Shown: positions 848 to 18,590 of the stretch, piece by piece
Layout: every line of letters begins with the position of its first letter
Position numbering within the stretch: position 1 is the first letter of the stretch
Virus record (IMG/VR): IMGVR_UViG_2703718776_000018
DNA length: 18,590 nt
Direction: 5' to 3' (one strand)
DNA from: a virus
Taxonomy: Duplodnaviria; Heunggongvirae; Uroviricota; Caudoviricetes
The notes under the pieces: generated by a model
What the model saw: the letters and a program-made list of their open reading frames with translations, nothing else
Database searches by the model: none
What the model was told of the DNA's origin: nothing
Program-made: the position numbers and the translations under genes

Positions 848-3835
848 ATGAGCTTAAGCGATCAGGTGGTAATGGCCACCAGCATAGAAACGCTGATCGA
901 GCTGCTAAAGAACCTGCCCGATTATGGGCGGGTTTCGTATGTGGTGACAGCGAAGGGAGACGAGGTAAAAACAGCGTTTGATATCGTCGATGCCTCAGCT
1001 ATTTTGGTATCCAATACTCTGGATGGGAAAATTAATCCTGACTATCCCCAGGAACTTCAGCCGCGCGACCGGACCCGCGCATCCAGCCTTCTTCAGGTTA
1101 ACCAGATATCCAAAGATTTGCGGCCTGCTCAGCTTACCGATTCCGGATTATCCAGCCATGGCGCACCGATAATTGGTGAGGACAATGCAGTTGAGTCAGG
1201 TAATGGACGTACCATGGGGATCATTAAAGCCTATCAGGACGGTAATGCGGATCGGTATCGGGAGTACCTGATTGAACATGCGACCGAATTCGGCATACGT
1301 ACTGAAAAGGTTGAATCAATGACGGCTCCGGTACTGGTGCGCCGCCGGTTAACGAAGGTTGACCGCGTTCAGTTTGCCAAGGACTCAAATATTTCTGATC
1401 TTCAGGAAATGGCAGCCAGTGAAAAGGCTTTTGTTGATGCCGACAGCATAACACCGGCGATGATGGCGCTGTTTAATCCGTCAGAAAGCGGAGATCTGCT
1501 TAGCCGCAGTAATGACGCGTTTATTCGCGGATTTATGACGCAAGTTGGTGCCACACAGGCGGCTGGCCTTGTAACTGAAGATGGGCGACCAACACGGCAA
1601 CTTGTAGACCGTATACAAAACGCGATCTTTGCCAAGGCATATAAGGATGCGCGCCTGGTAAGGATGGTTGCAGAAGAACCTGATCCGGATATGCGTAATG
1701 TTCTGACGGCGCTTAATGCGGCAGCCAATGATTTTGTCCAGATGCAGGCTTTATCAGGAGAAGCGCACAAGCAGGCTGTGACAACTATTGTTGATGGCAT
1801 TGAGACAGCGGATAGCCTCGATAAAAAGGCGCTGGCGGCATTGAAAGATGCGGTAGACCTGGTAAGGCAATCGAAGGAGTCAGGCCAGCATATTACCGAT
1901 GTTATTGCTCAGGGGGATATGTTCAGCGAAATGGCCCCGGAAGTGAAAGCACTCGCGTTGTTCATCGTCGCGAATAACCGTAGCGCGAAGCGTATGGCCA
2001 CCGCCTTTAAGTTGATGGCTCAACGTATCAATGATGAGTTACAGCACCAGGGCCAGGCGCTGGGGGATATGTTTGGCGGCGGCGATGTGTCGTTACAGGA
2101 TATCCTTCGCCAGGTATCTCAGGAACTGGAAAACGAAGGTATGCAAGGGATATCCGGCGGTCTTTTCGAGTCAGCTTCCGGCGGTAGTTACAACGGTGTT
2201 GCTCCATATACCAGTTTGCTATTACATCGAGCATCCGGCATCAAAGACATTATTCATCTGATCAGGCTGCTTTCCCGTAAAGATCCCCAGGATGAACAGC
2301 TTGTACAAGTGCTTGCGCATTTTGTTCGAATGCCTGTTGCCGACGTGAAAAAATGGTGCCGATTATTCGGTATCAGCAATTCGTTACTTCGCGGCTTGTT
2401 AAATCACGCATCCTCCCTTGGGCGCGATGGCTTTGACGAGATAGCGCAGGCGATAAAAAACGGAGATATGCCACCAGCTATTGACTGGTTTTCCATTCGC
2501 CCAACCAGGGTGAAAGCATTCCTTAGCGCGGCGCATTCGGCATCACCATTGGCAGAAATGGTTCAGAGGTTGTCGCTCATATTCACAGACCATACCGCGT
2601 TGGGTGATCTGACTCTGGACGAGATGAAAGAAGCCTCCATTCAGTGGGCCGATCAACAAAATGAGGTTAACTCAGACTTCTTGCCAGCATTCAGGAAGGC
2701 CGTTAGTAAAGCGGATGATGCCCGTGGAATTCTGAAGGCATTTAAGGCATTGCAAAGTCGTGTTAATAAACATGTCGGTGATATCGATGGGGTAACGGCG
2801 GAAGGCCGGGATATCCTTAAAGAGCACGGCATAACGCCAGAGTTTATTGATGAGATCAGGACTGATATGCAGCGTGAGGTCGTATCGTCCCTGCAAATCG
2901 TAGCCAGAGCGTTGGCGGATGCTAATCCGAAGAGTGCGGCCATTGTTAACCGGGTTATTGGTGATATTGAAGCATCGGAGGGCATGGGGGCGCTGAAACT
3001 CTTCCTTTCGCGAGCGTTTAATCCTAACGGCAATATTCTCCCTGGCATTATTGGTGAGGCTAAAAAGTATGTCAGTGAAGAAGAACTTGAGCAGCTTGAC
3101 CAACTACTTAAGCGATTCTCATATAACCCGCAGACACGCTGGCAAATGAATCAGCGAAGTATGGGTTCGGTCCACGAGAAAGTGTTATCTGCCATGAACA
3201 GTGCGATCGCAAACTCATCCGTATCTGAAGAAAAAGCTCTTGAGTGGGCCGACTCTTTTATCACAGAAGAAGTGGAAGAAGCCCGCGCTGGACAGAATGG
3301 TGGGATAGACCTGCGCAAGGAACTTGCTGATATTTATCGCCTGACCGGCGGGAAAATATCGACCTTATCAAAGGTAGTTCACCACCAGGGAAGGGCATAT
3401 GCAAATCTAAATGGTGTTGTTGCTGTCAATTTGAACGATAAAAATGCAAGTGCACTGTGGCACGAGCTGGGTCATCATCTTGAGTACAGTAACCCTGGTT
3501 TGTTAGAGAAAGCCCGGTCATTCCTGAAGGCCAATGTTGAAGGGGATAAGCCATCTTTCGTTAATATCGGTGGGCGTGGCAAGCCTGAATGGTGCTTCAG
3601 ATCTCGATTGAGTAATATTTATATGGCGAAGGTATACCCGCCAGCCTCAGTAAGTAACACCGGGAAAATTCGGCAGAAATCACCGACTATTTCCAAAACG
3701 TCAGCAACGGAAGTATTCTCTATGGCTCTTCAGTTGTATCATGACAAAGAGGCCGCTGCCGCATCACTGATGAATGGTGACGGATTGCTGGAACTGTTAT
3801 TAGGTGTGGCAAAGGAGCTAAATAATGCAGATTAA
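848..3835 (+). CDS. Large 995-aa protein with an N-terminal ParB/Srx-like motif region and a C-terminal HExxH zincin-like motif; polyvalent-protein-like, possibly a virion-associated anti-defence protein (P1 Ddr-like?)
   Basis: Long uninterrupted ORF. Residues 63-73 read NPDYPQELQPR and residues ~116-127 read SGNGRTMGIIKA, with spacing reminiscent of the ParB N-terminal domain. HELGHH lies at residues 872-877 (nt 3461-3478). In-frame stop 4 codons upstream (833-835); the only SD-like sequence (TAAGG, 833-837) is about 10 nt from the ATG. Confidence 0.8.
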   Translation: MSLSDQVVMATSIETLIELLKNLPDYGRVSYVVTAKGDEVKTAFDIVDASAILVSNTLDGKINPDYPQELQPRDRTRASSLLQVNQISKDLRPAQLTDSGLSSHGAPIIGEDNAVESGNGRTMGIIKAYQDGNADRYREYLIEHATEFGIRTEKVESMTAPVLVRRRLTKVDRVQFAKDSNISDLQEMAASEKAFVDADSITPAMMALFNPSESGDLLSRSNDAFIRGFMTQVGATQAAGLVTEDGRPTRQLVDRIQNAIFAKAYKDARLVRMVAEEPDPDMRNVLTALNAAANDFVQMQALSGEAHKQAVTTIVDGIETADSLDKKALAALKDAVDLVRQSKESGQHITDVIAQGDMFSEMAPEVKALALFIVANNRSAKRMATAFKLMAQRINDELQHQGQALGDMFGGGDVSLQDILRQVSQELENEGMQGISGGLFESASGGSYNGVAPYTSLLLHRASGIKDIIHLIRLLSRKDPQDEQLVQVLAHFVRMPVADVKKWCRLFGISNSLLRGLLNHASSLGRDGFDEIAQAIKNGDMPPAIDWFSIRPTRVKAFLSAAHSASPLAEMVQRLSLIFTDHTALGDLTLDEMKEASIQWADQQNEVNSDFLPAFRKAVSKADDARGILKAFKALQSRVNKHVGDIDGVTAEGRDILKEHGITPEFIDEIRTDMQREVVSSLQIVARALADANPKSAAIVNRVIGDIEASEGMGALKLFLSRAFNPNGNILPGIIGEAKKYVSEEELEQLDQLLKRFSYNPQTRWQMNQRSMGSVHEKVLSAMNSAIANSSVSEEKALEWADSFITEEVEEARAGQNGGIDLRKELADIYRLTGGKISTLSKVVHHQGRAYANLNGVVAVNLNDKNASALWHELGHHLEYSNPGLLEKARSFLKANVEGDKPSFVNIGGRGKPEWCFRSRLSNIYMAKVYPPASVSNTGKIRQKSPTISKTSATEVFSMALQLYHDKEAAAASLMNGDGLLELLLGVAKELNNAD

Positions 3836-4145
3836 AATCGCAGCGCCATTAGGCGGAGATGCCATTATCGAATTTGATGATAATGAAGAAGTTTCCGGGC
3901 GTTTAAGCATTATCTCCGGTGACATTACCGAGGACATGATCGCTGAAGCCATAGCTGGGGCAAATCCCAATAGCTATATGGGATTCGTTAACACCCTTGA
4001 TGCTCCCGCAAGTGATGTTCTCCGAACGCTGCATCTTTACGCTGGCTGGTTTGTTGATTGGCCAGCAGTAGATGGTGGCGATGAGGATGATGATGACGAT
4101 GAAGAGGTTTTTAGTGATGAAACAGTAAACCAACTCTTGTATTGA
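3825..4145 (+). CDS. Small, very acidic 106-aa protein translationally coupled to the 995-aa gene
   Basis: Strong SD AAGGAG 7 nt upstream of the ATG at 3825. Overlaps the upstream stop by 11 nt. About 25 Asp/Glu against 4 basic residues, with a C-terminal run DGGDEDDDDDEEVFSDE. Confidence 0.7.
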   Translation: MQIKIAAPLGGDAIIEFDDNEEVSGRLSIISGDITEDMIAEAIAGANPNSYMGFVNTLDAPASDVLRTLHLYAGWFVDWPAVDGGDEDDDDDEEVFSDETVNQLLY

Positions 4146-4274
4146 CAGGAATTGGCATAGAATTGATTGTTCAAATTTCATCCATCACATAGACGACTTC
4201 ATGTTATTTGCCTGATAATTATGGCCTTAATAACCCATGTATATCTTTTGGGTTATATTCTTATCTTTAACAAG

Positions 4275-4320
4275 GTTATAAGAGCGACAATGATAAATTT
4301 ATCACTATCGCTCTTATAAC
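4275..4320. repeat. 46-bp near-perfect palindrome: 13-bp perfect arms (GTTATAAGAGCGA / TCGCTCTTATAAC) enclosing a 14-bp perfect inner palindrome TGATAAATTTATCA; possible bidirectional terminator or protein-binding site
   Basis: Read directly from the sequence; only 2 mismatched positions across 46 bp. Sits between the convergent 106-aa (+) and 95-aa (-) genes. Confidence 0.8.
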
Positions 4321-4348
4321 TCTTTGTTAGCTATAGCTTTAAACAAAT

Positions 4349-4636
4349 TTAGTTTTGAGGCAATGCAACAAAAGTCAGCTCTTGATCTTTGATTAATGCT
4401 TTTGTTTGTTTGGATGTAATTCCCACTTTAGTTTTTACATCATTGTGGAGCTTCTTATACGCTTTTATTTCATCTGCTGTATATCGGAAGCCATTTGCAC
4501 TGTTACTGGACAGTTGAAGTGCGATTACGTCATCACTGACACCCGCATCGCTTAGCTTAGCTATGCGGGTAATAGTGTGGCCTGCGCGAGTGTTTGGGGT
4601 GGATATTTTGTCTAAGAAATTGTTCAGTTTTTCCAT
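4349..4636 (-). CDS. Hypothetical 95-aa protein in an AT-rich cassette; possible HTH-like segment
   Basis: ATG at 4636 with SD GAGGT 8 nt upstream on the reverse strand. Bounded by the palindrome at 4275-4320 and the terminator at 4857-4884. Local GC is clearly lower than the flanks. The segment TITRIAKLSDAGVSDDVIALQL loosely resembles an Xre-type HTH. Confidence 0.65.
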   Translation of the reverse strand: MEKLNNFLDKISTPNTRAGHTITRIAKLSDAGVSDDVIALQLSSNSANGFRYTADEIKAYKKLHNDVKTKVGITSKQTKALIKDQELTFVALPQN

Positions 4637-4856
4637 TGTTTACAACCTCTTACTTGAGTTTATTGCCAGTAGAATTGCCACTATTCTTTTGCCTCAACGA
4701 ATCACAATGTACTGGAATAAGAAACTATGAGCAATACTTACGCTTTGCGAATACAGAAGATGAATAATCAACTTATTACTAAAATGTTAATAATATTATT
4801 CTGTTACATAGTGTTCGCTATAACAATCGGGAGTTGAATGCTAATTCAATAAATAA

Positions 4857-4884
4857 AGAACCCGCCAATTGGCGGGTTCTTTTT
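4857..4884 (-). terminator. Rho-independent terminator (10-bp stem AGAACCCGCC/GGCGGGTTCT, loop AATT) with U-rich tracts on both sides
   Basis: Perfect GC-rich hairpin directly after the stop of the 262-aa reverse-strand gene (stop 4883-4885); followed by TTTATTTATT on the reverse strand and TTTTT on the forward strand. Confidence 0.8.
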
Positions 4885-5671
4885 AATCACTTTCCACTTC
4901 TCCCGTGGTGTTTTCTTGCAGTTCTGTTAATGCAGCACGACATAGGTTCCGGGCATTGGCTATAGCCACACTTTTGACTTCATCCGTCATCGTGCAGGTA
5001 ATGTACTGATCTAGTTCTTCATCGCGGATGATGCTTTTGCCAATCAGAAACTGTATTTGCCAGAGCAGATCGGCATCCATAATCAGAATTTCTGCCGGGC
5101 CTTCAGGGCCAGCCGGGAAGGAAACATAAGACTGTTTGCCCAGGCCGACAACTCGACAACTTGCTTCAAGAATTGCGCGCTTGAGGTCTGACTTTATAAC
5201 GGAAACAGGTTGATTTTCACCAGTGATTACGCCGTTGACATGGAAAGGCATGTAGCTTGAAATTCGCTCTACTTTCCATACGCCAGCAAGCGATCCTTCA
5301 TGCAGCACAATGGGGGTAACCGCGAGTTTCATCTCACCATATAACTGCTGGCAGATAGCTGGATTGCTGAATACATCCAAAGGTTCACACTCAAACAGCG
5401 GCGCAATCTGCATGAGGTCCATCATGGTCATCCCTGGGGTACGAGCAGTAATGAATCTGCGCATACCAGTATCCATTGCGCTCCAGATTGCTACACCATG
5501 CTTTTTGCTCACTTCTTCAGTAAAGCCAAGGTGGCACATGATGGTTTTTTCGATAGCCAGATCAGAGATAGAAACCGTTTCGCCTGGCACTCCATCATTA
5601 TTGACGGTCACTTCGACACTCTGGCCATTACGTAGGCGGTATTGAATGGTTTTAGTATTTTGTGCTGTCAT
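4883..5671 (-). CDS. Hypothetical 262-aa protein downstream of ssb; function unknown
   Basis: Uninterrupted ORF with ATG at 5671, ending at a strong terminator. No motif recognisable by eye. Confidence 0.75.
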   Translation of the reverse strand: MTAQNTKTIQYRLRNGQSVEVTVNNDGVPGETVSISDLAIEKTIMCHLGFTEEVSKKHGVAIWSAMDTGMRRFITARTPGMTMMDLMQIAPLFECEPLDVFSNPAICQQLYGEMKLAVTPIVLHEGSLAGVWKVERISSYMPFHVNGVITGENQPVSVIKSDLKRAILEASCRVVGLGKQSYVSFPAGPEGPAEILIMDADLLWQIQFLIGKSIIRDEELDQYITCTMTDEVKSVAIANARNLCRAALTELQENTTGEVESD

Positions 5672-5868
5672 AGTCTTTTCTCTGCTTAAAAACTGATGTA
5701 TTGCGCCTTCAGGTTGGTTAGGAATGTTTTCCCACCAGCGAAAGCAATATCTCGGGGTGTTCTATTCGTTAAAAGCGCGTGCCATTGCCAACTTTGGCGT
5801 TTTTGAGCGAGTTCGTGCTTTTGTCGGCGTCTGGACCACCGCTTTTTTTTCAGTCGTTTTTTACACAT

Positions 5869-6357
5869 TCAAAACGGAATATCGTCGTCAAAGTCCATTG
5901 GAGGTTCGTTATTAGCGTTGCTCTGAGGTTTACCGCCACCACTGTATTGCTGGTGGTTTTGAGGTTGGTTTGATTGCCCCCAGCCATTTGTGGACTGTGA
6001 ATCGTCGCGACGAGCGCCGATCATTTGCATGGTGCCGCCCTGGCTGACGATAATTTCCGTCGTGTAACGTTCTACACCGGCGTCATCTGTCCACTTACGG
6101 GTTTTAAGTTTCCCTTCGATGTAGACCTGAGAACCTTTTCGTAAATACTCACTCGCAATTTCAGCAAGTTTTCCGAACAAAACGACTTTATGCCATTCTG
6201 TTTGCTCTTTCTGTTGGCCCGTTTGCTTGTCGCGCCATGATTCATTCGTTGCGATGCTGAGTCTTCCGACCGCGCCGCCATTTGGTATATACCTGATCTC
6301 CGGGTCTTGCCCCAGGGTGCCAATCAGGATGACTTTGTTTACACCGCGTTGTGCCAC
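5869..6357 (-). CDS. ssb: Single-stranded DNA-binding protein (162 aa), GTG start
   Basis: N-terminus [20 protein letters not shown].. is a typical SSB OB-fold start. Gly/Gln-rich linker and the canonical acidic tail [14 protein letters not shown] 7 nt before the GTG at 6357. Confidence 0.92.
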
Positions 6358-6376
6358 TTATCTTACCTAATAAAAT

Positions 6377-6393
6377 AAAATAATTAGAGCAAC
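6377..6393 (-). promoter_or_regulatory. Candidate C1-repressor-type operator (reverse strand reads GTTGCTCTAATTATTTT) over the presumed ssb promoter
   Basis: 14/17 match to the P1 C1 operator consensus ATTGCTCTAATAAATTT as I recall it, including a perfect TTGCTCTAAT core. Lies 20-36 nt upstream of the ssb GTG. Confidence 0.4.
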
Positions 6394-6526
6394 AATGTAT
6401 ATCTTTGAAACGTAGCTAACAAGTGATTTGCATTATCCTGTGCCTTCTAAAGGGATCGAGTCAGTCGGTATTGGCTGTGAATGGGTGTTTGTCCTGGAGC
6501 GTAAAAAATTCGCTTATGAGGTCTTT

Positions 6527-7084
6527 ATGAAGGGAAAAACAGCCGCAGGAGGCGGTGCAATTTGCGCTATCGCGGTGATGATTACCATCGTGATGGGTAA
6601 TGGCAATGTGCGAACCAACCAGGCGGGGCTTGAGCTGATTGGTAACGCTGAAGGTTGCCGACGTGATCCATACATGTGCCCGGCGGGGGTATGGACTGAC
6701 GGGATCGGTAATACACACGGGGTAACGCCGGGTGTGCGAAAAACCGACCAGCAAATCGCCGCTGATTGGGAAAAGAATATCCTGATCGCTGAACGCTGTA
6801 TTAATCAGCACTTTCGGGGCAAAGACATGCCCGATAATGCCTTCAGTGCAATGACAAGCGCGGCATTCAATATGGGATGCAATAGCTTACGGACCTACTA
6901 CAGCAAAGCGCGAGGCATGCGAGTCGAAACGTCCATCCACAAGTGGGCGCAGAAAGGGGAATGGGTGAATATGTGTAACCATCTCCCTGATTTTGTGAAC
7001 AGTAACGGCGTGCCCCTGCGAGGTTTAAAGATTCGCCGTGAAAAAGAACGCCAGCTTTGCCTGACGGGGCTGATCAATGAATAA
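6527..7084 (+). CDS. lyz: SAR (signal-arrest-release) endolysin, T4-lysozyme family, 185 aa
   Basis: Starts MKGKTAAGGGAICAIAVMITIVMGNG (Gly/Ala-rich SAR domain with Cys13), then NAEGCRRDPYMCPAGVWTDGIGNTHG carrying the Glu/Asp/Thr catalytic residues. Matches my recollection of P1 Lyz. SD GAGG before the ATG at 6527; the ORF-track start at 6428 is a TTG over-extension. Confidence 0.95.
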   Translation: MKGKTAAGGGAICAIAVMITIVMGNGNVRTNQAGLELIGNAEGCRRDPYMCPAGVWTDGIGNTHGVTPGVRKTDQQIAADWEKNILIAERCINQHFRGKDMPDNAFSAMTSAAFNMGCNSLRTYYSKARGMRVETSIHKWAQKGEWVNMCNHLPDFVNSNGVPLRGLKIRREKERQLCLTGLINE

Positions 7085-7331
7085 ACTCCGGCAGCTCCGC
7101 CGACTTTCGACAATGAAGTTATCGCTGGCGGCGATAGTTTTCGACTCGATTTTCATGGCGGTATATGTGCTCAATGAGACGTGGCCACTGGAACCGCTAT
7201 TATATGCCGGGCTTCGGCTGTGCCTGACATTTTTGAGCATGGCTGCAAGATTGATGCAGCAGAAAGAAACCGCTTCAGATTGCCCACGTCGCGCGGTGCG
7301 CAAATATATGGCACGCAGACGAAGGCGATAA
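7077..7331 (+). CDS. Candidate small membrane protein (84 aa; one or two hydrophobic helices, poly-Arg C-terminus) translationally coupled to lyz; possible lysis accessory protein
   Basis: ATG overlaps the lyz stop (ATGAATAA). Hydrophobic stretches LSLAAIVFDSIFMAVYVL and LLYAGLRLCLTFLSMAARL; tail RRAVRKYMARRRRR. Stop at 7329-7331 is followed immediately by a terminator. Confidence 0.45.
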   Translation: MNKLRQLRRLSTMKLSLAAIVFDSIFMAVYVLNETWPLEPLLYAGLRLCLTFLSMAARLMQQKETASDCPRRAVRKYMARRRRR

Positions 7332-7342
7332 TAGTTAACGAT

Positions 7343-7370
7343 AACCCCGGCAGCCGCCGGGGTTATTTTT
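7343..7370 (+). terminator. Rho-independent terminator (stem CCCCGGC/GCCGGGG, loop AGCC, then TTATTTTT) closing the lyz transcript
   Basis: Seen in sequence between the end of the lyz-coupled ORF and the convergent protease gene. Confidence 0.75.
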
Positions 7371-7375
7371 GATGG

Positions 7376-10106
<2,731 letters not shown>

Positions 10107-10172
10107 TTAATTAGAATAATTCGCATCGTGTTTGAACGGAATTTAACACTAGTCACTTGTTAAGGATTACCA

Positions 10173-13100
10173 ATGAACAAGCTATCTATGGGGGTGTTTC
10201 GCTGTTCAAGTGTCAGCGAAATATTGAAATACATTAGGGCAATAACATCTCACCGAGCGCCGATTAAATACGGCGTGGAAAAGGTGGAAGGCAAAAGCTA
10301 TGACCGACTGCGCCGGGAGGCGAATCAGAAGGCGATAGATTTGCTTAATTCACTGGTGGACGGCGCGACACTGACAGATGAACAGCGCCAGATCCTGGCT
10401 GGGTACACCGGTGAAGGCGGCATTGGCGGGTCCGTCTCCGAATATTACACACCAAAGCCGATCGCTGAAGGTGTCTGGGAGATCATGAAGCTCTACGGCG
10501 CGGACGTAGGTAACACTCTGGAACCATCGGCGGGCACCGGCGTTTTTAATGAGACAAAACCGGTTGGTACGGTGATGACTGCGACTGAGATCAGCAGTGT
10601 TTCCGGTCGTATAAACCAGTTGTTACACCCGGAAGACAGCGTACAGATTTCCCCGTTCGAACAGCTGGCTATAAGCACACCTAACGATTCATTCGACCAT
10701 GTTGTGGGTAACGTTCCGTTCGGCGGTCGTGATAACACACGCAACATCGATAAGCCTTACGCAGAAGAAACGGACATGGGTTCTTACTTCATGCTCCGCA
10801 TGCTGGACAAGATAAAGCCAGGCGGATTCATGTGCGTGATTGTGCCGCCGTCCATTGTTTCAGGTTCAAACATGAAGCGGTTACGCCTGCGCCTATCACG
10901 GAAAGCAGAATTTCTTGGTGCCCACCGCTTGCCTACCGGTACTTTTGACGCAAACGGGACCAGTACGGTCGTAGATGTGGTGCTGATGCGCAAACATCCG
11001 GCAGAGATGGCTGAGAAAATCCCCCTGGTGGATGAAAGCACTCTTGAATCAGCAAATGTGCTTTGGCCAACGTTTATTTCTGGCAAGTGGTTTGAAAAGG
11101 ATGGCCGCCGGTTTGTTCATGGCACCCAAGAAAAGGGCTTCCGGGGGCGTATTGAGGTTCGTGCCGACGGTCAGATTGATAACCAGGCTCTTAAAGCGAA
11201 GCTGATTCATCGTTTCGAAAGCCGTATCGACTGGTCTTTGCTCGATATGGCTGAACCGTCACCGACCGCAGACGTTGTTGGTGAAGGGGAAATGCGCCTG
11301 ATTAATGGCGTATGGCAAAAATATGCTGGTGGTCGCTGGATTGAAGCTGATGCCGGGAAGGAACTTAAGATCGATGCTGCCAGTTATGGCGCGGATAGCT
11401 GGGAGGCTCTTCAGCGTAACCTGACTACAACAGAAGGCCGTCTCGGCATGACATTTACCCAGATGGCAAATGTCCGCGATAAGTACACCACATCAATCAG
11501 CGACGATATGGTGCAGCTGGTGGACTGGATTAACAGCCAGCCTGAAAAATACCGTGAACGCTTGTATCGCGGGGCGATGATTGGCCGGATGTTAATTGAA
11601 TATCAGGACATGAAGGCCGCCGGGCATAGTGCTGAACAAATCGAACAGCAGCGCCTTTCTCTGGTATCCCGTTTGCAGGCAGAGATTGACCGTTTTGGTA
11701 ACCCCGGTCGCGGTCCGATAGCGAAATTATCGGGGAGCGGTGCGCGCGCCTGGTTTGCTTTCCGTGGTGCAATTAAGCTGGATGGCACTATTTCTGACGA
11801 GCTGACAGGAAAACTGGTTACGCATGATTCCAGCGCCAGTTATGACTCCACCAGCTATCAGGACACCCTGCGTTATCTCTACAGTGATCTCACTCGCGAT
11901 CCAATCCAGCTCGATGATTTCCGCCTTGCGTTTACCGGCGAACTGCCAGCCAGTGATGATGAGTTGCTTAATTTATTGGCCAGCACCCCTGGCATTGCGG
12001 TTTCACCGTATGGCGGGATTGTTCCGTTCGCCCGCGCCACCAGCGGCGACATTAACGAGATAGTGGCTCCAAAACAGGAATTCCTCGCCACGCTCCCCGA
12101 CGGTCCAGTAAAGAACAACGTCCTTAATCAGCTGGCAGCGATCGAAGAGAAGCGCATCAAGACGCCAGCAGAGAATATCCGCTTTAAGCTCAATAGCCGT
12201 TGGTTCGACCGCTCCGTCATTCTGGAGTTTTTGCAGGAAAACGGCTATCCGGATCTGCGCTATGTGCAGTCAGTGCAGCTGGAAGGCGACGAAATGGTTT
12301 CTGACACCTATCACGGTGGTGATGGTCTGTTCGTCGGGCACCGATACGGTGTCGTCCAGCGCAAGGATAAAGAAACAGGCGAGATCCGCTACGAGTGGGA
12401 CCGTAAATCAGGTGAAAACGCGACCGGGTTCCCGGCACAACTGGAAAAGTATCTCAATGGTGCGCGTATCGGTGGCAAAGATAGCGCGACGGCGAACGGC
12501 TACCGCGAGCAGATGGCACTGCTTGAGGACCAGTTCAATAAGTGGATCAAGACGCACGATCGCTACGATGAGCTGGTTGCCAAATACAACGATGTGTTCA
12601 ATAGCAATATCCCGTATGAACACTCTGGCGATCCGCTTGGGTTGAAGGGATTAAGCGGTAAGCGCCAGCCATTTGATTACCAGAATAGCGAGGTGCGCCG
12701 ACTGTCCGAAGATGGGCGCGGCATCCTGGGCTTCGGCACCGGGCTGGGTAAAACCACGACCGCGCTGGCGCTTGAGGCGTTCAACTATGAGAACGGTCGC
12801 TCCACCCGTACTGCTTATGTAGTGCCTAAAGCAGTGCTGGAAAACTGGTATTACGAAGCAAAAGAGTTCCTGAGTGAAGAGGCATTCAGTAACTACCTGT
12901 TCGTCGGTCTTGATGTGCTGATGGATGGCGATCAGATTCGCCAGGTGCCGGTGCTCGATGAGAACGGTAAACCTGTTCTTGGTACTGATGGCACTCCAGT
13001 TATGCGCGATGCTCTTAAGCTGGCAGATGAAGCCACTATCACGGCGCGGATGAACGCGATCCCGCACTCAAATTACCGTGCAGTCGTGTTTACCAAAGAA

Positions 13101-16100
13101 CAATACGCCCGCATTCCGCTACGTGATGACACCGTAGATGAGCATGCACAAGACATGCTTTATGACTTCGTTGCCGCCGGGCGCGTAGCCAGCGCAATGG
13201 ATTCCGACTCCCATCGTAAAGAGGCGGCGCGTCGCTGGGTATTGTCGGAGTATTCAGATACCGGTACCGAAAAAGCAGAGAAGTATCCGTACTTTGAGGA
13301 TATGGGCTTCGATAGTGTGATCGCCGACGAAGGTCACAACTACCGCAATAGCTATAAAAATGGTCGCGAAGCGTCACAACTGGCCTATCTGCCCACCAGC
13401 GCGGTGGCGCAATCGGCGCGGGATATGGCAATCAAAAACGCGTACCTGATGAAAAAGAATGGCGGGCGCGGGCCGGTTCTCCTGACTGCAACGCCAGTCG
13501 TTAACACCCCGATCGATGCATACAACATGCTTTCTCATGTTCTGCCGAAGGAATACTGGCAGAAGATGGGGATCTACGGTCCTGATGACTTCGTTAAATT
13601 CTTCGGCAAGACCAGGCTGGAAACGGTACAGAAAATCAGCGGTGAAGTTGAAGAAAAAATGGCGCTGGTGGGCTTTGAAAACCTTGATGCGCTGCGCGGT
13701 ATATTCCATCGCTGGGTAACGCTTAAAACGGCGGAAGACGTTAAGGATACCGTGGAGATCCCGGAGCTGGACGAACACCAGCAGGATGCACCACTTACTG
13801 AAGAACAACTGGCGGCGTATGAAGAATTGCGTCAGCAGGCGGAAGCGGCGGCCAAAGCCAACAATGGCGTAACGACCTCGGTCAATGAAGACGGCGTGAT
13901 TGAGCACGAGAAAGCCCGTCCGATCTTCTCAATAATCAGGGATATGGACCGCGTATGTACTGACATGGACCTGTACTATCGCCGGATCACCTATCGTTTC
14001 CTGCCGGAGTACGCAGATGCGGTGCAGCAGCTGGCGGACAGTTTGCCTAAACAAGCCACCAGCGAAGACGACGACAGTGATGATTCAATCACGCAGCAAT
14101 CGCAATACTCCCTGATAGATAAGGGCGAGTTTATTCAGTTGCAGGTTCCGGAAGCGTTCGAGCAGGAAGTGAATAAGCGCCTGGCCAGGTTTGGCATTGA
14201 CGAACAGACCGTAACTCACCCCGTTACGCCCAAATACGCGAAGCTGATTGCCACGCTGAAGGAGTTTTTCCCGGAAGGTAAGCAAATCATCTTCACCGAT
14301 GAAAAAACGCAGCACCAGAAGCTCAAGCGCATTATCTGCAATGCTCTTAACCTTGAACCTTCAAAGGTGGGGATACTGAATGCTCAGACGGTTGCCGAGG
14401 CAGGTAAAACCGGTAAGAAACTGAAAGCGGTTAAACCGCCGAAAGAGCTACCGGATGAACCAACAGATGCACAGATAGCGAAATACAACGAGCAAATGGC
14501 TCTGTATGACGCCTATATCGCGCAGCAAAATGAAATGTCGCTGGGCGGGCTGGAAAAGATTGCTGCCGACTTCCAGGAGGGCCGGACTCCGATCATCATC
14601 TGCAACAAAAAGGCAGAGGTGGGTATCAACCTGCATCGAGGAACGACTGACATCCATCATCTGACGTTGCCATGGACACCAGCCAGTATCGCACAGCGTA
14701 ACGGTCGCGGTGCCCGAGTTGGTTCCAACCGTGCAAGCGTTCGCGTTCACTACTACTGCGGCAAGGGTTCTTTCGATGAATACCGACTGAAGACGCTGAA
14801 GCGTAAAGCAGGCTGGATCTCCGATATCCTCCGTTCAGATAAGTCAGAAATGGAGAACGCCGACGCCAACGATATGATCGAAATGCAGATGTATACCGCT
14901 AAGGATGATGGCGAACGTCTGGCAATGATGCAGGTTCAAATGGATAAGGCGAAAGCCGCGCAACGCGCTCGCCAGAAAGAACAGGCTACTATCGACCTTC
15001 AGAACTACATCAAGGCGCAGCACGCAGCTGGTGAGGATGTGGAGGTGCTTACCGCTGAATTAGAGCGAAGAAAAGCGGAACTCGAAAAGACCACCGCCGA
15101 CGTCGCCAAATTCAAACAGGCGGTAATGGCCAAAGCAGCTGATAACGCAGACTGGAAAGCCCGCTGGGGTAGCGTCCATCACACAGACCGTACGTTGTTA
15201 GCACAGTATCGCGCGTCGTTGAAAAGCGCCATTCAGCGCAAGGCTAATATCTCTCAAGCCATCTCCCGCTATGAGAAATTATTGAACCGTACTCAGAAGG
15301 CCGCGACGGATATCAAACGCCTTCGCCCGCTGGTGGAGGATGCAATAAATAAAGGCATTCTGGATGTTGATCCTGACCTGGTTAACCATGCGAGTGAGTT
15401 CCTTATTATCGGCGATCGCTCATGGCGTGTAGGCCAATACTACGATTGTGCCGGTGATATCGTTCGCATTAAGTCGCTGGACTTCGACAGCCAGCGCGCA
15501 GACGTGGAGATTATCTTTACCTTCAAAGGTACCAAATCGGGTAACTGGGATGTGAAGACGCTGGATAAACAGGTTGATGTAACTCCCGATGAAGATGCTG
15601 TTATGCAGAAAATCAGTGGTGGCGTCTCCATCGCCGGGATTAACGACATCATTTCCTGTGACGATTTCTACCGTTTCCAGCAGCGCGGCATGATCAAAAT
15701 CACTGACTCATACGGCGTTCAGACTACAGAGTCAGGCTATAGCATTGATTTTGTTGGTACCTATACGGACCCACTGAAGCATGCGGTTTACCCGGATCGC
15801 CGTGACGGCGCGCTGAAGTCGTCAATTGCAAAATGGGTGCTTGGTATGATGTCTGAAGGGAATAACCGCCAGGTCCGTTTGGCAGAAGTATTCCTGACTG
15901 AACTGTTTGGCTCCAATTATGGCGATGTAATCGCGTCATATGGAGATACGCTATCCCCTGAAGCAATTCAGGAGAAAATAGCGGATGCGATCGCCAGAAT
16001 GCCGGAGAAAACAAGCCAGGGGGCTACTCGTAACGGGGATTCTGAACTTGAGGTCACCAATGCCATTTTCGGTACCCATGAGTTCCGGGCGTCAGATTAT

Positions 16101-16940
16101 GAGATCACCACAGCACAGTTTGGCACCATTGGCATTTACAGCAATAAAGCCGAGATCAAGCAGGCAATGGACGCAGCAAGCGCGCGTATCGCAGCAGAAC
16201 GGGAAGCCAATCTGAATCATGCAGTCGCCGCACTGACTCAATCGTGGGTAACAGCAATCAGGGAGGCCGCCACCACAGGGAAAATCACACCTGCAATTGC
16301 GGATGTCGTAAACGACGGCTCTAAATTTATGGATGCCTATCAAATGGATGCGGTGAAGTTGCCATCAGCCTATGGTCAACTCAGCTATCGCATGACCTAC
16401 AACCTGGTATCAATGTTTTCCGACCTTGCCATCCTTGGGCTGGTGGATCTTAACGAGGTTACGCCGGAATTGCTCAGCATGCGCAAGAATCATGTGGAGA
16501 TATTGCAGAGAATTAACACGGTTCTTGCCGGGCGCACCGATGAAGAGAAACAGGCCGACGCTGATCGGATAAACCTGGCCCTTGGCAACATCACGGAGGA
16601 AGAAATTGCCGCCAGAAACGAGAAACAAGAAGAGTTATCATCAATACAGGGTGATGCCACCAGCATAGCTCAGTCTCTTGGTCTGAATTATCGCGTATCC
16701 ACCGCCGACCTGAAGATGATGTACGCACCAAAATTCGCCGCTGGCGAGGTATTTGGGCTTCAGGAAGCCTCAGGCATGAAAGGCGTTCTTTTCCGTGCGA
16801 AAGACGCAATCAAGGCGAAATTCGGCGCTCGCTGGCTGCCAGCGAAGGCGAAGAACAGCGATTTCCCGGGTAACTGGTGGATTATCGAGACAAAACACAA
16901 CGTGGCGGACGTTCTGGCCGTCATCCAACAATACGCATAA
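10173..16940 (+). CDS. darB: DarB-type antirestriction protein, 2255 aa: N6-adenine methyltransferase-like domain fused to an SF2 (SNF2/DExH-like) helicase, plus a long uncharacterised C-terminal region
   Basis: SD AAGGA 6 nt before the ATG. MTase motifs LEPSAGTGVF (residues 116-125) and GNVPFGG (179-185, nt 10707-10727). Helicase motifs GFGTGLGKTT (853-862, nt 12729-12758), DEGH (1052-1055, nt 13326-13337), LLTATPVVN, QRNGRGARVG. Length equals P1 DarB as I recall it. Confidence 0.9.
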   Translation: MNKLSMGVFRCSSVSEILKYIRAITSHRAPIKYGVEKVEGKSYDRLRREANQKAIDLLNSLVDGATLTDEQRQILAGYTGEGGIGGSVSEYYTPKPIAEGVWEIMKLYGADVGNTLEPSAGTGVFNETKPVGTVMTATEISSVSGRINQLLHPEDSVQISPFEQLAISTPNDSFDHVVGNVPFGGRDNTRNIDKPYAEETDMGSYFMLRMLDKIKPGGFMCVIVPPSIVSGSNMKRLRLRLSRKAEFLGAHRLPTGTFDANGTSTVVDVVLMRKHPAEMAEKIPLVDESTLESANVLWPTFISGKWFEKDGRRFVHGTQEKGFRGRIEVRADGQIDNQALKAKLIHRFESRIDWSLLDMAEPSPTADVVGEGEMRLINGVWQKYAGGRWIEADAGKELKIDAASYGADSWEALQRNLTTTEGRLGMTFTQMANVRDKYTTSISDDMVQLVDWINSQPEKYRERLYRGAMIGRMLIEYQDMKAAGHSAEQIEQQRLSLVSRLQAEIDRFGNPGRGPIAKLSGSGARAWFAFRGAIKLDGTISDELTGKLVTHDSSASYDSTSYQDTLRYLYSDLTRDPIQLDDFRLAFTGELPASDDELLNLLASTPGIAVSPYGGIVPFARATSGDINEIVAPKQEFLATLPDGPVKNNVLNQLAAIEEKRIKTPAENIRFKLNSRWFDRSVILEFLQENGYPDLRYVQSVQLEGDEMVSDTYHGGDGLFVGHRYGVVQRKDKETGEIRYEWDRKSGENATGFPAQLEKYLNGARIGGKDSATANGYREQMALLEDQFNKWIKTHDRYDELVAKYNDVFNSNIPYEHSGDPLGLKGLSGKRQPFDYQNSEVRRLSEDGRGILGFGTGLGKTTTALALEAFNYENGRSTRTAYVVPKAVLENWYYEAKEFLSEEAFSNYLFVGLDVLMDGDQIRQVPVLDENGKPVLGTDGTPVMRDALKLADEATITARMNAIPHSNYRAVVFTKEQYARIPLRDDTVDEHAQDMLYDFVAAGRVASAMDSDSHRKEAARRWVLSEYSDTGTEKAEKYPYFEDMGFDSVIADEGHNYRNSYKNGREASQLAYLPTSAVAQSARDMAIKNAYLMKKNGGRGPVLLTATPVVNTPIDAYNMLSHVLPKEYWQKMGIYGPDDFVKFFGKTRLETVQKISGEVEEKMALVGFENLDALRGIFHRWVTLKTAEDVKDTVEIPELDEHQQDAPLTEEQLAAYEELRQQAEAAAKANNGVTTSVNEDGVIEHEKARPIFSIIRDMDRVCTDMDLYYRRITYRFLPEYADAVQQLADSLPKQATSEDDDSDDSITQQSQYSLIDKGEFIQLQVPEAFEQEVNKRLARFGIDEQTVTHPVTPKYAKLIATLKEFFPEGKQIIFTDEKTQHQKLKRIICNALNLEPSKVGILNAQTVAEAGKTGKKLKAVKPPKELPDEPTDAQIAKYNEQMALYDAYIAQQNEMSLGGLEKIAADFQEGRTPIIICNKKAEVGINLHRGTTDIHHLTLPWTPASIAQRNGRGARVGSNRASVRVHYYCGKGSFDEYRLKTLKRKAGWISDILRSDKSEMENADANDMIEMQMYTAKDDGERLAMMQVQMDKAKAAQRARQKEQATIDLQNYIKAQHAAGEDVEVLTAELERRKAELEKTTADVAKFKQAVMAKAADNADWKARWGSVHHTDRTLLAQYRASLKSAIQRKANISQAISRYEKLLNRTQKAATDIKRLRPLVEDAINKGILDVDPDLVNHASEFLIIGDRSWRVGQYYDCAGDIVRIKSLDFDSQRADVEIIFTFKGTKSGNWDVKTLDKQVDVTPDEDAVMQKISGGVSIAGINDIISCDDFYRFQQRGMIKITDSYGVQTTESGYSIDFVGTYTDPLKHAVYPDRRDGALKSSIAKWVLGMMSEGNNRQVRLAEVFLTELFGSNYGDVIASYGDTLSPEAIQEKIADAIARMPEKTSQGATRNGDSELEVTNAIFGTHEFRASDYEITTAQFGTIGIYSNKAEIKQAMDAASARIAAEREANLNHAVAALTQSWVTAIREAATTGKITPAIADVVNDGSKFMDAYQMDAVKLPSAYGQLSYRMTYNLVSMFSDLAILGLVDLNEVTPELLSMRKNHVEILQRINTVLAGRTDEEKQADADRINLALGNITEEEIAARNEKQEELSSIQGDATSIAQSLGLNYRVSTADLKMMYAPKFAAGEVFGLQEASGMKGVLFRAKDAIKAKFGARWLPAKAKNSDFPGNWWIIETKHNVADVLAVIQQYA

Positions 16941-16973: not shown

Positions 16974-17414
16974 ATGGCCACACTATCTGATACAATAAAA
17001 CCGAATAAAACATATCTTGAGGCGGTACTGCGTACGGCGTTGTTAGGAAAGACAGAAGACGAATACGTTGATTTCTTCCTGTCAGGGCTACGTGGGCGAT
17101 TACTGAAAAATCCCCGCCTGTACCGCAGCTATGGCCCATACTGGCCGGAAATTAAAAAATTATTACTGGAGCGCGGTTATGGTAATTTCGGTCGTCTCGT
17201 TGACCGTGACGTTCGCAAAATTTACCGTTATGACCGCCCGGCGCTAACACTCATAGCCGCGACGCTCTACAGCCAGGAGCGTTTTGATAATGGTCAGATA
17301 TACTCAGCCTGGCATTTACTGCCAGTGCCTGAAGAAGTTGACGACCAGGACTATGAGTTTGAGTCTTACGATTTGGAAGTTGAAGCCTTGGCACAGGCTG
17401 GAGAGAAAACTTGA
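16974..17414 (+). CDS. ulx: Ulx-like protein (146 aa), co-transcribed downstream of darB
   Basis: ORF directly after darB and overlapping the next gene start. Position and size agree with my recollection of P1 ulx (upstream of lxc). Not verifiable without a search. Confidence 0.6.
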   Translation: MATLSDTIKPNKTYLEAVLRTALLGKTEDEYVDFFLSGLRGRLLKNPRLYRSYGPYWPEIKKLLLERGYGNFGRLVDRDVRKIYRYDRPALTLIAATLYSQERFDNGQIYSAWHLLPVPEEVDDQDYEFESYDLEVEALAQAGEKT

Positions 17415-17659
17415 AAAAGCGATACTACACAGTAAAGCATGGGACGCTACGAGCATTACAAGAGTTTGCTGACAAGCATAACGTTGAGGTGCGCAGGGAA
17501 GGGGGAAGTAAAGCTCTGCGCATGTACCGTCCGGACGGGAAATGGCGGACGGTCGTCGATTTCAAAACTAACAGCGTTCCCCAGGGCGTCCGCGACCGGG
17601 CATTCGAAGAATGGGAACAGATCATCATAGATAACGCATTGCTCCTGAATGCGGATTGA
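17411..17659 (+). CDS. lxc: Lxc/Bof-like small protein (82 aa), TTG start overlapping the ulx stop
   Basis: TTG at 17411 with SD GGAGA 7 nt upstream. Overlap TTGA with the ulx stop. Followed by a terminator. Size and position consistent with P1 lxc (bof) from memory. Confidence 0.5.
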   Translation: MKKRYYTVKHGTLRALQEFADKHNVEVRREGGSKALRMYRPDGKWRTVVDFKTNSVPQGVRDRAFEEWEQIIIDNALLLNAD

Positions 17660-17669
17660 TTTATATATC

Positions 17670-17699
17670 GGGCAGTTGTAGCTGCCCGTTAAATTTTTG
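17670..17699 (+). terminator. Rho-independent terminator (stem CGGGCAG/CTGCCCG, loop TTGTAG, then TTAAATTTTT) between convergent genes
   Basis: Seen in sequence, immediately after the lxc-like stop and before the stop of the reverse-strand 196-aa gene. Confidence 0.75.
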
Positions 17700-17710
17700 C
17701 CGCTCTTCAA

Positions 17711-18301
17711 TTACACTATATCTTTTACTATAGAATTAGCATCCTCCAGTACGCCAATTTCTTCGATGCGTTTTTTTATTATTAATCGATTTGAAGCAAT
17801 GATTGTGGACCATCTTGTTTCCCAAGCTCTATAAGCATGCCACGAATAACCTAATCTCATTTCTTTGCTCATGTTGGACATTGAGTATTCAACGGCGTCT
17901 AAATATTCATTTTCATACTTAGTTCCACCAATTTCTAAAAGGCTGCCGAAATATATAAGCCATTTTGCAAGCTGCTCGTATTGCTCCCAAGCACCACTCT
18001 CTCTTGTTAAATCTCTTTTTTGTTTTATTATTCTCTTGAAAAAATCAACTACTTGTCCGTCATTCCAGTCGAAACCCTCAGATATAATCGAGGAGGTTAT
18101 TTGATAGAATGAATCTTCTAATCTAAGGTATTCATCCTTATAGTTGAAAGTGCCTGATAAAACTCTTTTTATACTTTGTCTGGCTCTTGCTATGACGCCT
18201 TCAATTAACATTATGTTAATGCTCAATCTCTTAAAGAAAGAGTCTATTTCGGTGTTGTCAATTACTCGTATTCCAAAACAATAAAAATAATAATCCTTCA
18301 T
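17711..18301 (-). CDS. Hypothetical 196-aa protein in an AT-rich island next to IS1; function unknown
   Basis: Uninterrupted ORF with ATG at 18301. Region 17700-18374 is markedly AT-rich compared with the darB/ulx side. No SD-like sequence stronger than AAGT upstream. Confidence 0.7.
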   Translation of the reverse strand: MKDYYFYCFGIRVIDNTEIDSFFKRLSINIMLIEGVIARARQSIKRVLSGTFNYKDEYLRLEDSFYQITSSIISEGFDWNDGQVVDFFKRIIKQKRDLTRESGAWEQYEQLAKWLIYFGSLLEIGGTKYENEYLDAVEYSMSNMSKEMRLGYSWHAYRAWETRWSTIIASNRLIIKKRIEEIGVLEDANSIVKDIV

Positions 18302-18331
18302 ATCTTGACTTACTTCACTGCGAGAGATGAA

Positions 18332-18348
18332 AAATATATTAGAGCACA
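18332..18348 (-). promoter_or_regulatory. Candidate C1-repressor-type operator (reverse strand reads TGTGCTCTAATATATTT) upstream of the 196-aa gene
   Basis: 14/17 match to the recalled consensus ATTGCTCTAATAAATTT with a perfect TGCTCTAATA core. Lies 31-47 nt upstream of the ATG at 18301. Confidence 0.4.
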
Positions 18349-18374
18349 GAGCGTTACCTTTCGAGAATATTTTG

Positions 18375-18590
18375 TAATCATTTATGGTAATGACTCCAAC
18401 TTATTGATAGAGTTTTATGTTCAGATAATGCCCGATGACTTTGTCATGCAGCTCCACCGATTTTGAGAACGACAGCGACTTCCGTCACAGCCGTGCCAGG
18501 TGCTGCCTCAGATTCAGGTTATGCCGCTCAATTCGCTGCGTATATCGCTTGCTGATTACGTGCAGCTTTCCCTTCAGGCGGGATTCATAC
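18375..18590 (-). mobile_element. IS1, partial: terminal inverted repeat and 3' portion of the transposase gene; the element continues beyond the window end
   Basis: From 18375 the forward strand reads GGTAATGACTCCAACTTATTGATAG.., the IS1 terminal repeat. The reverse complement through 18590 matches the IS1 3' region I recall (..CTGCATGACAAAGTCATCGGGCATTATCTGAACATAAAAC..). Confidence 0.9.
18390..18590 (-). CDS. insB: IS1 transposase InsB, C-terminal part (runs off the window end)
   Basis: Reverse-strand frame ends ..[17 protein letters not shown] with the stop at 18390-18392, the characteristic InsB C-terminus. Confidence 0.85.

Follow-up and report, generated by a model that had tools for sequence, protein, structure and literature searches.

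The darB gene and the motor end of its C-terminal region

We analysed the C-terminal region of the anti-restriction gene darB (positions 14400-16940) in an 18,590-nucleotide (18.6 kb) stretch of viral DNA, IMG/VR record IMGVR_UViG_2703718776_000018, hereafter the window. The window is a P1-like plasmid prophage or element, in which darB and the gene that follows it lie as listed here.

10173-16940, plus strand: darB, a single intact open reading frame (ORF) of 2255 residues plus stop, encoding in order an N6-adenine methyltransferase, an SNF2 translocase (motif I at residues 853-861 to motif VI at 1508-1517) and a tail
16974-17414, plus strand: ulx, 146 residues, 33 nt downstream of darB

The gene itself is not new: as proposed in a preliminary description made from the sequence, the ORF at 10173-16940 is an ordinary, already annotated DarB. 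Over 14400-16940 the DNA was 99.1% identical to P1 darB and 97-99% identical to P7, SJ46, RCS47 and other punaviruses. Of its 2255 residues, 20 are substituted relative to P1 DarB, 8 of these after residue 1410; E. coli plasmid NZ_CP027575.1 encodes a tail of the same protein sequence (100% identity), and the tail is present on 695 PLSDB plasmids. Gene order is as in P1 (ddrB, hxr, ..., ssb, lyz, pro and prt (divergent), darB, ulx, lxc). Near-identity over the full length and a locus between prt and ulx mark the protein as the orthologue of P1 DarB, with N6-adenine methyltransferase and SNF2 helicase motifs in one polypeptide (Pfam N6_Mtase at 145-291, Eco57I, SNF2-rel_dom, ResIII and Helicase_C) and NVPFG at residues 180-184, within the methyltransferase part. 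P1 DarB travels in the capsid, is injected and gives protection in cis from EcoB and EcoK (literature including PMC9024508); given its 99% identity, we assume that the copy in the window would be packaged, injected and protective in the same way.

Position 14400 is in frame, as the first base of codon 1410, and the region 14400-16940 encodes residues 1410-2255. Comparison of the window with P1 indicated purifying selection on this region, with a ratio of nonsynonymous to synonymous substitution rates of 0.15, compared to 0.06 for residues 1-1517, both from small counts. The sole ORF on the opposite strand across the region is 100 residues long, giving no support for an internal gene; promoter-like and terminator-like sites in the region occurred at chance level only, and there were no repeats of note.

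The preliminary description had called the ~850 C-terminal residues free of recognisable catalytic motifs. The motor motifs and the part of the motor inside the region were placed as follows.

Residues 853-861: motif I, GFGTGLGKT
Residues 1052-1057: motif II, DEGHNY
Residues 1104-1108: motif III, LTATP
Residues 1484-1488 (nt 14622-14636): motif V, GINLH
Residues 1508-1517 (nt 14694-14723): motif VI, QRNGRGARVG
14400-14723, plus strand (residues 1410-1517): rest of the SNF2 RecA2 lobe, with Pfam Helicase_C and motifs V and VI, ~50% identical across divergent orthologues
14724-14906, plus strand (residues 1518-1578): post-motif-VI brace, HYYxGKGSFDEFRLxTLKRKxxW...NADA, from the orthologue alignment

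Pfam Helicase_C covered residues 1455-1517 (E 3e-6; 27.7 bits against a cut-off of 23.5), and the first ~108 residues of the region are therefore still the second RecA-like lobe. Residues 1518-1578 we take to be the post-motif-VI brace, in line with what is generally known of SNF2 enzymes. Among 20 aligned orthologous tails (alignment A1), S1533, F1534, D1535, R1538, K1545, W1548 and N1562 of this segment were invariant, and its mean identity was 47.5%, compared to 50-53% for the methyltransferase, RecA1 and RecA2, demonstrating conservation like that of the catalytic lobes. AlphaFold modelled the brace with low confidence when it was taken without the motor, which is what packing on the motor would lead one to expect. 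Beyond RecA2, similarity continued in the NCBIfam profiles DrmD (1461-1649) and DpdE (1460-1525), the PLD-antiphage helicase profile also matched, and the DarB-like phrog_10089 aligned to 1461-1658. Thus, with Helicase_C, motifs V and VI and a shared post-VI segment found across 1410-1578 (or on to 1650), residues 1410-1578, the first ~170 of the region, are still SNF2 DNA translocase, namely the end of RecA2 and the brace. What stood of the original statement is a stretch of ~600 residues (1650-2255), or 738 when everything after motif VI is included, that has no family assignment; the unassigned tail is genuine and ~25% shorter than first claimed.

Anatomy, family searches and distribution of the tail

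To the end of DarB, the region divides into four further parts.

14907-15350, plus strand (residues 1579-1726): basic three-helix coiled-coil stalk, with helices at 1579-1619, 1623-1665 and 1670-1726
15351-15782, plus strand (residues 1727-1870): lead-in and predicted beta-barrel, a candidate SH3-like barrel of BAH/Tudor/KOW type, with seven strands at 1743-1801
15783-16667, plus strand (residues 1871-2165): acidic, mostly helical body, delimited by conservation and AlphaFold, without a fold or profile match
16668-16937, plus strand (residues 2166-2255): small basic alpha/beta C-terminal domain, from alignment A1 and an end-domain alignment (A3), modelled at a predicted local distance difference test score (pLDDT) of ~90

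These parts were obtained from two AlphaFold2 models, one of residues 1518-2255 built on alignment A1 (pLDDT 81.8; predicted template-modelling score, pTM, 0.51) and one of residues 1712-2255, without the stalk, built on a 30-sequence alignment (pLDDT 87.3; pTM 0.69). The latter pTM suggests that the modelled residues 1712-2255 would form one compact body.

The stalk helices are 41-57 residues long with pLDDT >90 and contain the segment that the preliminary description had singled out as coiled-coil-like, with DKAKAAQRARQKEQ at 1591-1604 and ELERRKAELEK at 1629-1639. Stalk length differs among orthologues. The stalk profile (positions ~83-200) matched only coiled coils in the PDB (Smc, Rad50, keratin), and the top Foldseek matches were the coils of SH3BP5, HlyD and JetC, none of them significant. 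Predicted packing of long amphipathic helices and similarity only to coiled-coil proteins thus identify 1579-1726 as a coiled coil, into which the DrmD and PHROG profiles extend, to ~1650-1670. A conserved lead-in (IKRLRP..AI..GLLDVDPD), starting at 1714, precedes the barrel, which is elaborated by a helix and a beta-hairpin at 1805-1860. The helical body, modelled over 1879-2168 and including a 44-residue helix (1992-2035), conserves VYPD..D..LK (1872-1882), LFG..Y....YG (1911-1924) and N1991; an insert at ~2032-2071 is variable, partly P1-specific, poorly occupied in the alignment and of low confidence. The end domain, modelled over 2171-2252, follows the pattern GI.v..NT ... F.AG....L.D..GK.G.L..AK..LK...GA.F ... 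F.G.WW.IP, in which K2214 and W2236 are invariant. Charge was distributed unevenly over these parts: the stalk was basic in 20 of 20 orthologues (isoelectric point, pI, ~9.7; net charge ~+7.5) and the end domain in 75% of them (median pI 9.0), whereas the barrel and helical body are acidic and DarB as a whole has a pI of 5.45.

Scans of full-length DarB and of its tail with Pfam, NCBIfam and PHROG profiles returned, past ~1650-1670, only the PHROGs of DarB itself (1685, 21007 and 21829), so that profile coverage by helicase accessory domains ends there. For residues 1650-2255 there was no helicase-associated domain match by profile or fold, and no Pfam family, the LPD and polyvalent-protein domains included, scored at its gathering threshold. 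Scanning each member of three orthologue alignments (20, 26 and 30 sequences) against Pfam likewise yielded no recurring family and unrelated singletons only; Tudor_1_RapA (E 0.08) and Par3_HAL_N_term (E 0.04) were treated as noise, the end domain having been scanned up to E = 10. When the PDB was searched by sequence, using either the single sequence or the A1 and A3 profiles, the matches were limited to coiled-coil proteins and the sub-threshold entries 4iaj, 4gdz and 2wb3, and for the end domain there was no PDB or Pfam match.

Foldseek searches with the whole-tail model gave 0 PDB matches at E <= 1e-3 and a list made up mostly of coiled coils; because this list was swamped by coiled coils, the tail was remodelled without the stalk. 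The fold search listed BAH domains (PBRM1 and ORC1b, with RSC2 and DNMT1 lower; up to 7.7), Spt5 KOW (6.4), HspQ/YccV (6.2), SMN/TDRD3 Tudor (5.7-6.2), ERCC6L2 Tudor (5.9) and the C-terminal Tudor domain of PcrA/UvrD (5.6-5.7). BFVD also gave 0 matches at E <= 1e-3; the best (E 2e-3, template-modelling score 0.19) was a fragment of an uncultured-phage DEXDc protein, which is probably a remote DarB-like tail.

We then considered where the tail occurs. A phmmer search of 1650-2255 against 1.84 billion cluster representatives found 68 proteins at E <= 1e-3, and those other than P1-like fragments were proteins of 2024-2463 residues, matched at their extreme C-terminus with 22-35% identity and sharing the methyltransferase-SNF2 architecture. 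Contigs of 77-99 kb from Vibrio cholerae, V. vulnificus, V. anguillarum, Aeromonas and Thaumasiovibrio, as large as P1-like plasmid prophages (pVv01, for example; PMC4132613), carry some of these homologues, and others lie on P1-like plasmids; Enterobacterales are among the hosts. Of 50,697 phage genomes, those with the tail were limited to punaviruses and, at 71% identity, Cronobacter phage JK004. Searching with a profile of the final 93 residues recovered nothing but the ends of DarB proteins and pieces of them, and word-indexed homologue searches with the single sequence, A1 and the end-domain profile A3 found only P1-like sequences and fragments. The Leclercia adecarboxylata P1-like plasmid pE1_003 keeps the order pro, prt, darB-like gene, ulx-like gene, with the Ulx-like 'olxA' (48% identical) directly after the darB-like gene and a tail only ~25% identical. 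Identity among orthologues was 21% for the coil, 20% for the barrel, 12-25% for the helical body and 24.5% for the end domain, making the tail the fastest-evolving part of DarB. Occurring only at the DarB C-termini of P1-type orthologues, the tail is a fixed, lineage-specific component of P1-type DarB and not a mobile domain.

Several observations concern database entries for darB and its tail. The darB-like gene of pE1_003 (3848-10689) is split near RecA2 into overlapping ORFs of 1501 and 821 residues in different frames, of which only the first is annotated (SNF2-related protein); the split could reflect a frameshift, a pseudogene or a sequencing error. Many public assemblies of E. coli and Salmonella contain in-frame internal-deletion and fusion ORFs (P0001, P0017, P0036, P0005, P0009 and P0012), all retaining the DarB C-terminus, among them DarB 1-297 joined to 1538-2255, DarB 1-548 joined to 2093-2255, a DarA_N/DarA_C::DarB 1672-2255 fusion on 12 contigs of up to 88 kb, and fusions of DdrB-ParB to DarB 1745-2255 and of a gp6-like baseplate protein to DarB 1789-2255 (Pfam-checked). 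Such ORFs may have arisen by genuine recombinational deletion in defective P1-like plasmids, or they may be artefacts of assembly. The tail also appears in databases as separate 'families' starting at ~1399, ~1794 or ~1801, including PHROGs 21007 (857 residues) and 21829 (462 residues) and clusters P0019-P0023 (455-462 residues, hundreds of members), which look like gene calls made on interrupted or incomplete darB copies, not genes of their own; phrog_21007 is labelled 'DNA methyltransferase' although it has no methyltransferase domain. In a 2463-residue metagenomic DarB orthologue (P0089), Walker A is split at ~880-1240, between GLGK and TFTSLAF, by an insert of ~370 residues that begins with AQPLDEPVLTPDGW and ends in VTHN and that, judged from its sequence, looks like an intein with a homing-endonuclease-like part.

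Candidate roles of the tail

Of the components of P1's classic Dar anti-restriction system, DarB is the largest; discovered nearly 40 years ago, it still has a mechanism described as undefined (PMC11109961). It has been described solely as LPD36-methyltransferase-SNF2 (Iyer et al. 2017, PMC5512222), our literature search found no paper addressing its tail, and ~600-740 of its 2255 residues, a quarter to a third of the protein, have never been given a role. From the established anatomy of the tail, its conservation, its restriction to one lineage and the absence of matches to known families, we infer a non-catalytic part that binds DNA or a partner. Our preferred reading, held with moderate confidence, is that the tail serves the translocase as an arm, specific to this lineage and without catalytic activity, that binds DNA or a partner; the binding role is drawn from the Tudor/KOW/BAH analogy and the basic surfaces. 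Residues 1579-2255 would be an appendage of the motor, a basic coiled-coil stalk carrying a compact head that comprises the BAH/Tudor/KOW-like barrel, the acidic helical body and the small basic alpha/beta end domain. Of these parts, the stalk and end domain, both basic, would make contact with co-injected phage DNA, and the barrel and head would hold a partner, which might be DNA in a particular state, a type I restriction complex or another Dar protein. The methyltransferase-translocase would thereby stay on the incoming genome and act in cis.

Several points weigh against a binding arm. The contacts with DNA or a partner are proposed from analogy and charge, and the basic charge could equally serve packing against DNA in the capsid. 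The AlphaFold alignments were shallow (20-30 sequences). The fold searches covered the PDB and BFVD, and a remote enzymatic fold could still lie in the helical body or end domain. Finally, the tail is 12-25% identical among orthologues compared to ~50% for the enzymes, which fits a host- or partner-specific interface but also weak constraint.

The main rival, possible though doubtful in our judgement, is that the tail is an assembly or ejection module without anti-restriction chemistry, which docks DarB on Ulx, DdrB or the DarA-Hdf lattice or controls how the protein unfolds and leaves through the tail tube. In the account of Piya 2017 given by PMC9024508 and PMC12810830, DarB comes last in the addition of the Dar proteins and is dependent on DarA, Hdf, DdrB and Ulx for incorporation. 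Ulx is a virion protein that aids DarB localisation (PMC9024508, Table 1), and its gene lies immediately after darB both in the window and in the distant Leclercia plasmid, where Ulx is better conserved than the tail. The tail is found only in P1-type, capsid-packaged DarB, and in the 2026 capsid structure, a cryo-electron microscopy study in which no density was assignable to DarB, unassigned density surrounds DarA (PMC12810830). Against such a module, N-terminal deletions abolish DarB packaging and residues 1-30 alone load TetR-mCherry into P1 capsids (Gonzales et al. 2022, PMC9024508), so that no C-terminal signal is needed for targeting. This places the published signal at the other end of the protein from the tail, where the preliminary description had suggested that capsid targeting might reside. 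No C-terminal requirement has been reported, but the same study included no C-terminal truncations, and the rival is therefore weakened only.

A more specific version of partner binding, which we regard as unlikely, makes the head (the BAH/Tudor/YccV-like barrel and the end domain) an undescribed specificity module for unmodified or hemimethylated type I target DNA, or for the EcoKI/EcoB complex, that would direct the translocase to evict or pre-empt the restriction enzyme. If true, it would explain both why DarB protects against only a subset of type I systems and why the tail evolves fastest.

Slightly less probable again is a cryptic extra effector: part of the tail would be an enzyme not so far recognised, or would inhibit type I restriction enzymes directly, so that DarB would be a three-activity polyvalent protein. 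Injected polyvalent proteins typically string together several effector domains (Iyer et al. 2017), and the undefined mechanism, together with a helical body and end domain that lack a fold analogue, leaves room for a new activity. Neither profile nor fold comparison (Pfam, NCBIfam, PHROGs, PDB and BFVD) gave an enzyme or inhibitor family match in the tail, and the tail was not seen as a mobile module in other architectures. Within 1727-2255, the only polar residues kept in >=85% of the 20 orthologues were Y1873, D1875, N1991, E/D2198 and K2214, which are dispersed over the subdomains and form no catalytic constellation; conserved positions were mostly glycines and hydrophobics, with P1874 and W2236 also kept. 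Of the earlier suggestion that the tail may hold additional effector domains, conserved and confidently folded domains were therefore recovered, but not an enzyme, and we consider binding or regulation a likelier role than enzymatic activity.

It is very improbable that the region consists throughout of ordinary accessory structure of an SNF2 helicase: the DrmD, DpdE and PHROG helicase profiles do run past motif VI, to ~1650-1670, and the brace is strongly conserved, but no helicase profile continues past ~1670, and the ~600 residues that follow, including the beta-barrel and the alpha/beta domain, are specific to P1-type DarB.

The tail thus emerges as a conserved, folded module of the P1 lineage that is not a linker, not the capsid-targeting signal and not obviously an enzyme. 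Our analysis leaves the classification of the gene unchanged; what it contributes is a map of domains, the confinement of the tail to one lineage, and boundaries open to testing (1578, 1726, 1870 and 2165), which enable clean truncation and binding experiments. P1 is under development for protein delivery by means of the DarB N-terminal signal, and it would be useful to know which parts of DarB are dispensable.

Comparison with P1 and other systems

DarB of P1 and P7 (YP_006479; PHROG 1685) is the same protein of 2255 residues with the same neighbours (pro and prt upstream, divergent; ulx and lxc downstream). There is no difference of substance from P1 DarB in the protein, and the host element differs from P1 elsewhere. 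It lacks the isaB-IS1 segment between hxr and isaA, and window positions 4101-4882 have no P1 match. After lxc there is no EcoP1 mod/res; instead, ~730 bp of unmatched DNA (17658-18385) carries a minus-strand ORF of 196 residues (17711-18301), followed at 18386-18590 by an IS1 end that is inverted and 98.5% identical to the IS1 of P1.

Over-representation of Chi sites is a known property of P1. The window contains 17 Chi sites (GCTGGTGG; 876-16664), compared to 0.53 expected; 10 of the 17 lie within darB (11325-16664), including three in the region 14400-16940 (15329 plus, 16439 plus and 16657 minus). A 2024 study reported that Chi sites in plasmid-borne darB relieve EcoKI restriction via RecBCD and ClpXP independently of the protein, which mimics protein-mediated anti-restriction (PMC11109961).

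Other phages and conjugative elements encode DarB-like methylase-SNF2 'polyvalent proteins' (Iyer et al. 2017; phrog_10089 and phrog_11801), which share the LPD36-methyltransferase-SNF2 dyad. Their profile similarity to DarB extends across RecA2 and the brace into the beginning of the coiled coil, up to ~1658, but they lack the ~600-residue head (barrel, helical body and end domain), which was present only in P1-type orthologues of ~2000-2460 residues. Similarity to DISARM DrmD (NF038317) is confined to a shorter stretch, in which DarB 1461-1649 (RecA2, brace and the next helices) aligned to DrmD positions 549-723 with E 3e-11. Assignment of DarB as a DrmD was rejected, because the score was 42 bits compared to a family cut-off of 610 and there was no match past 1650. 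DpdE and the PLD-antiphage helicase are other SNF2 helicases of defence systems with local profile matches, and their scores were likewise far below the family cut-offs.

Kin of the barrel may be sought among the Tudor, KOW and BAH barrels borne by nucleic-acid motors and methyltransferases, those listed being PcrA/UvrD, ERCC6L2, Spt5/NusG, RSC2, PBRM1, DNMT1 and HspQ/YccV. On PcrA/UvrD, ERCC6L2, Spt5/NusG, RSC and DNMT1, such barrels recruit a partner or read the state of nucleic acid or chromatin. Capsid-targeting sequences, such as that of T4 IPIII and DarB residues 1-30, provide the opposite comparison: the DarB signal is N-terminal, whereas the tail is a folded module of 70-80 kDa and not a short peptide.

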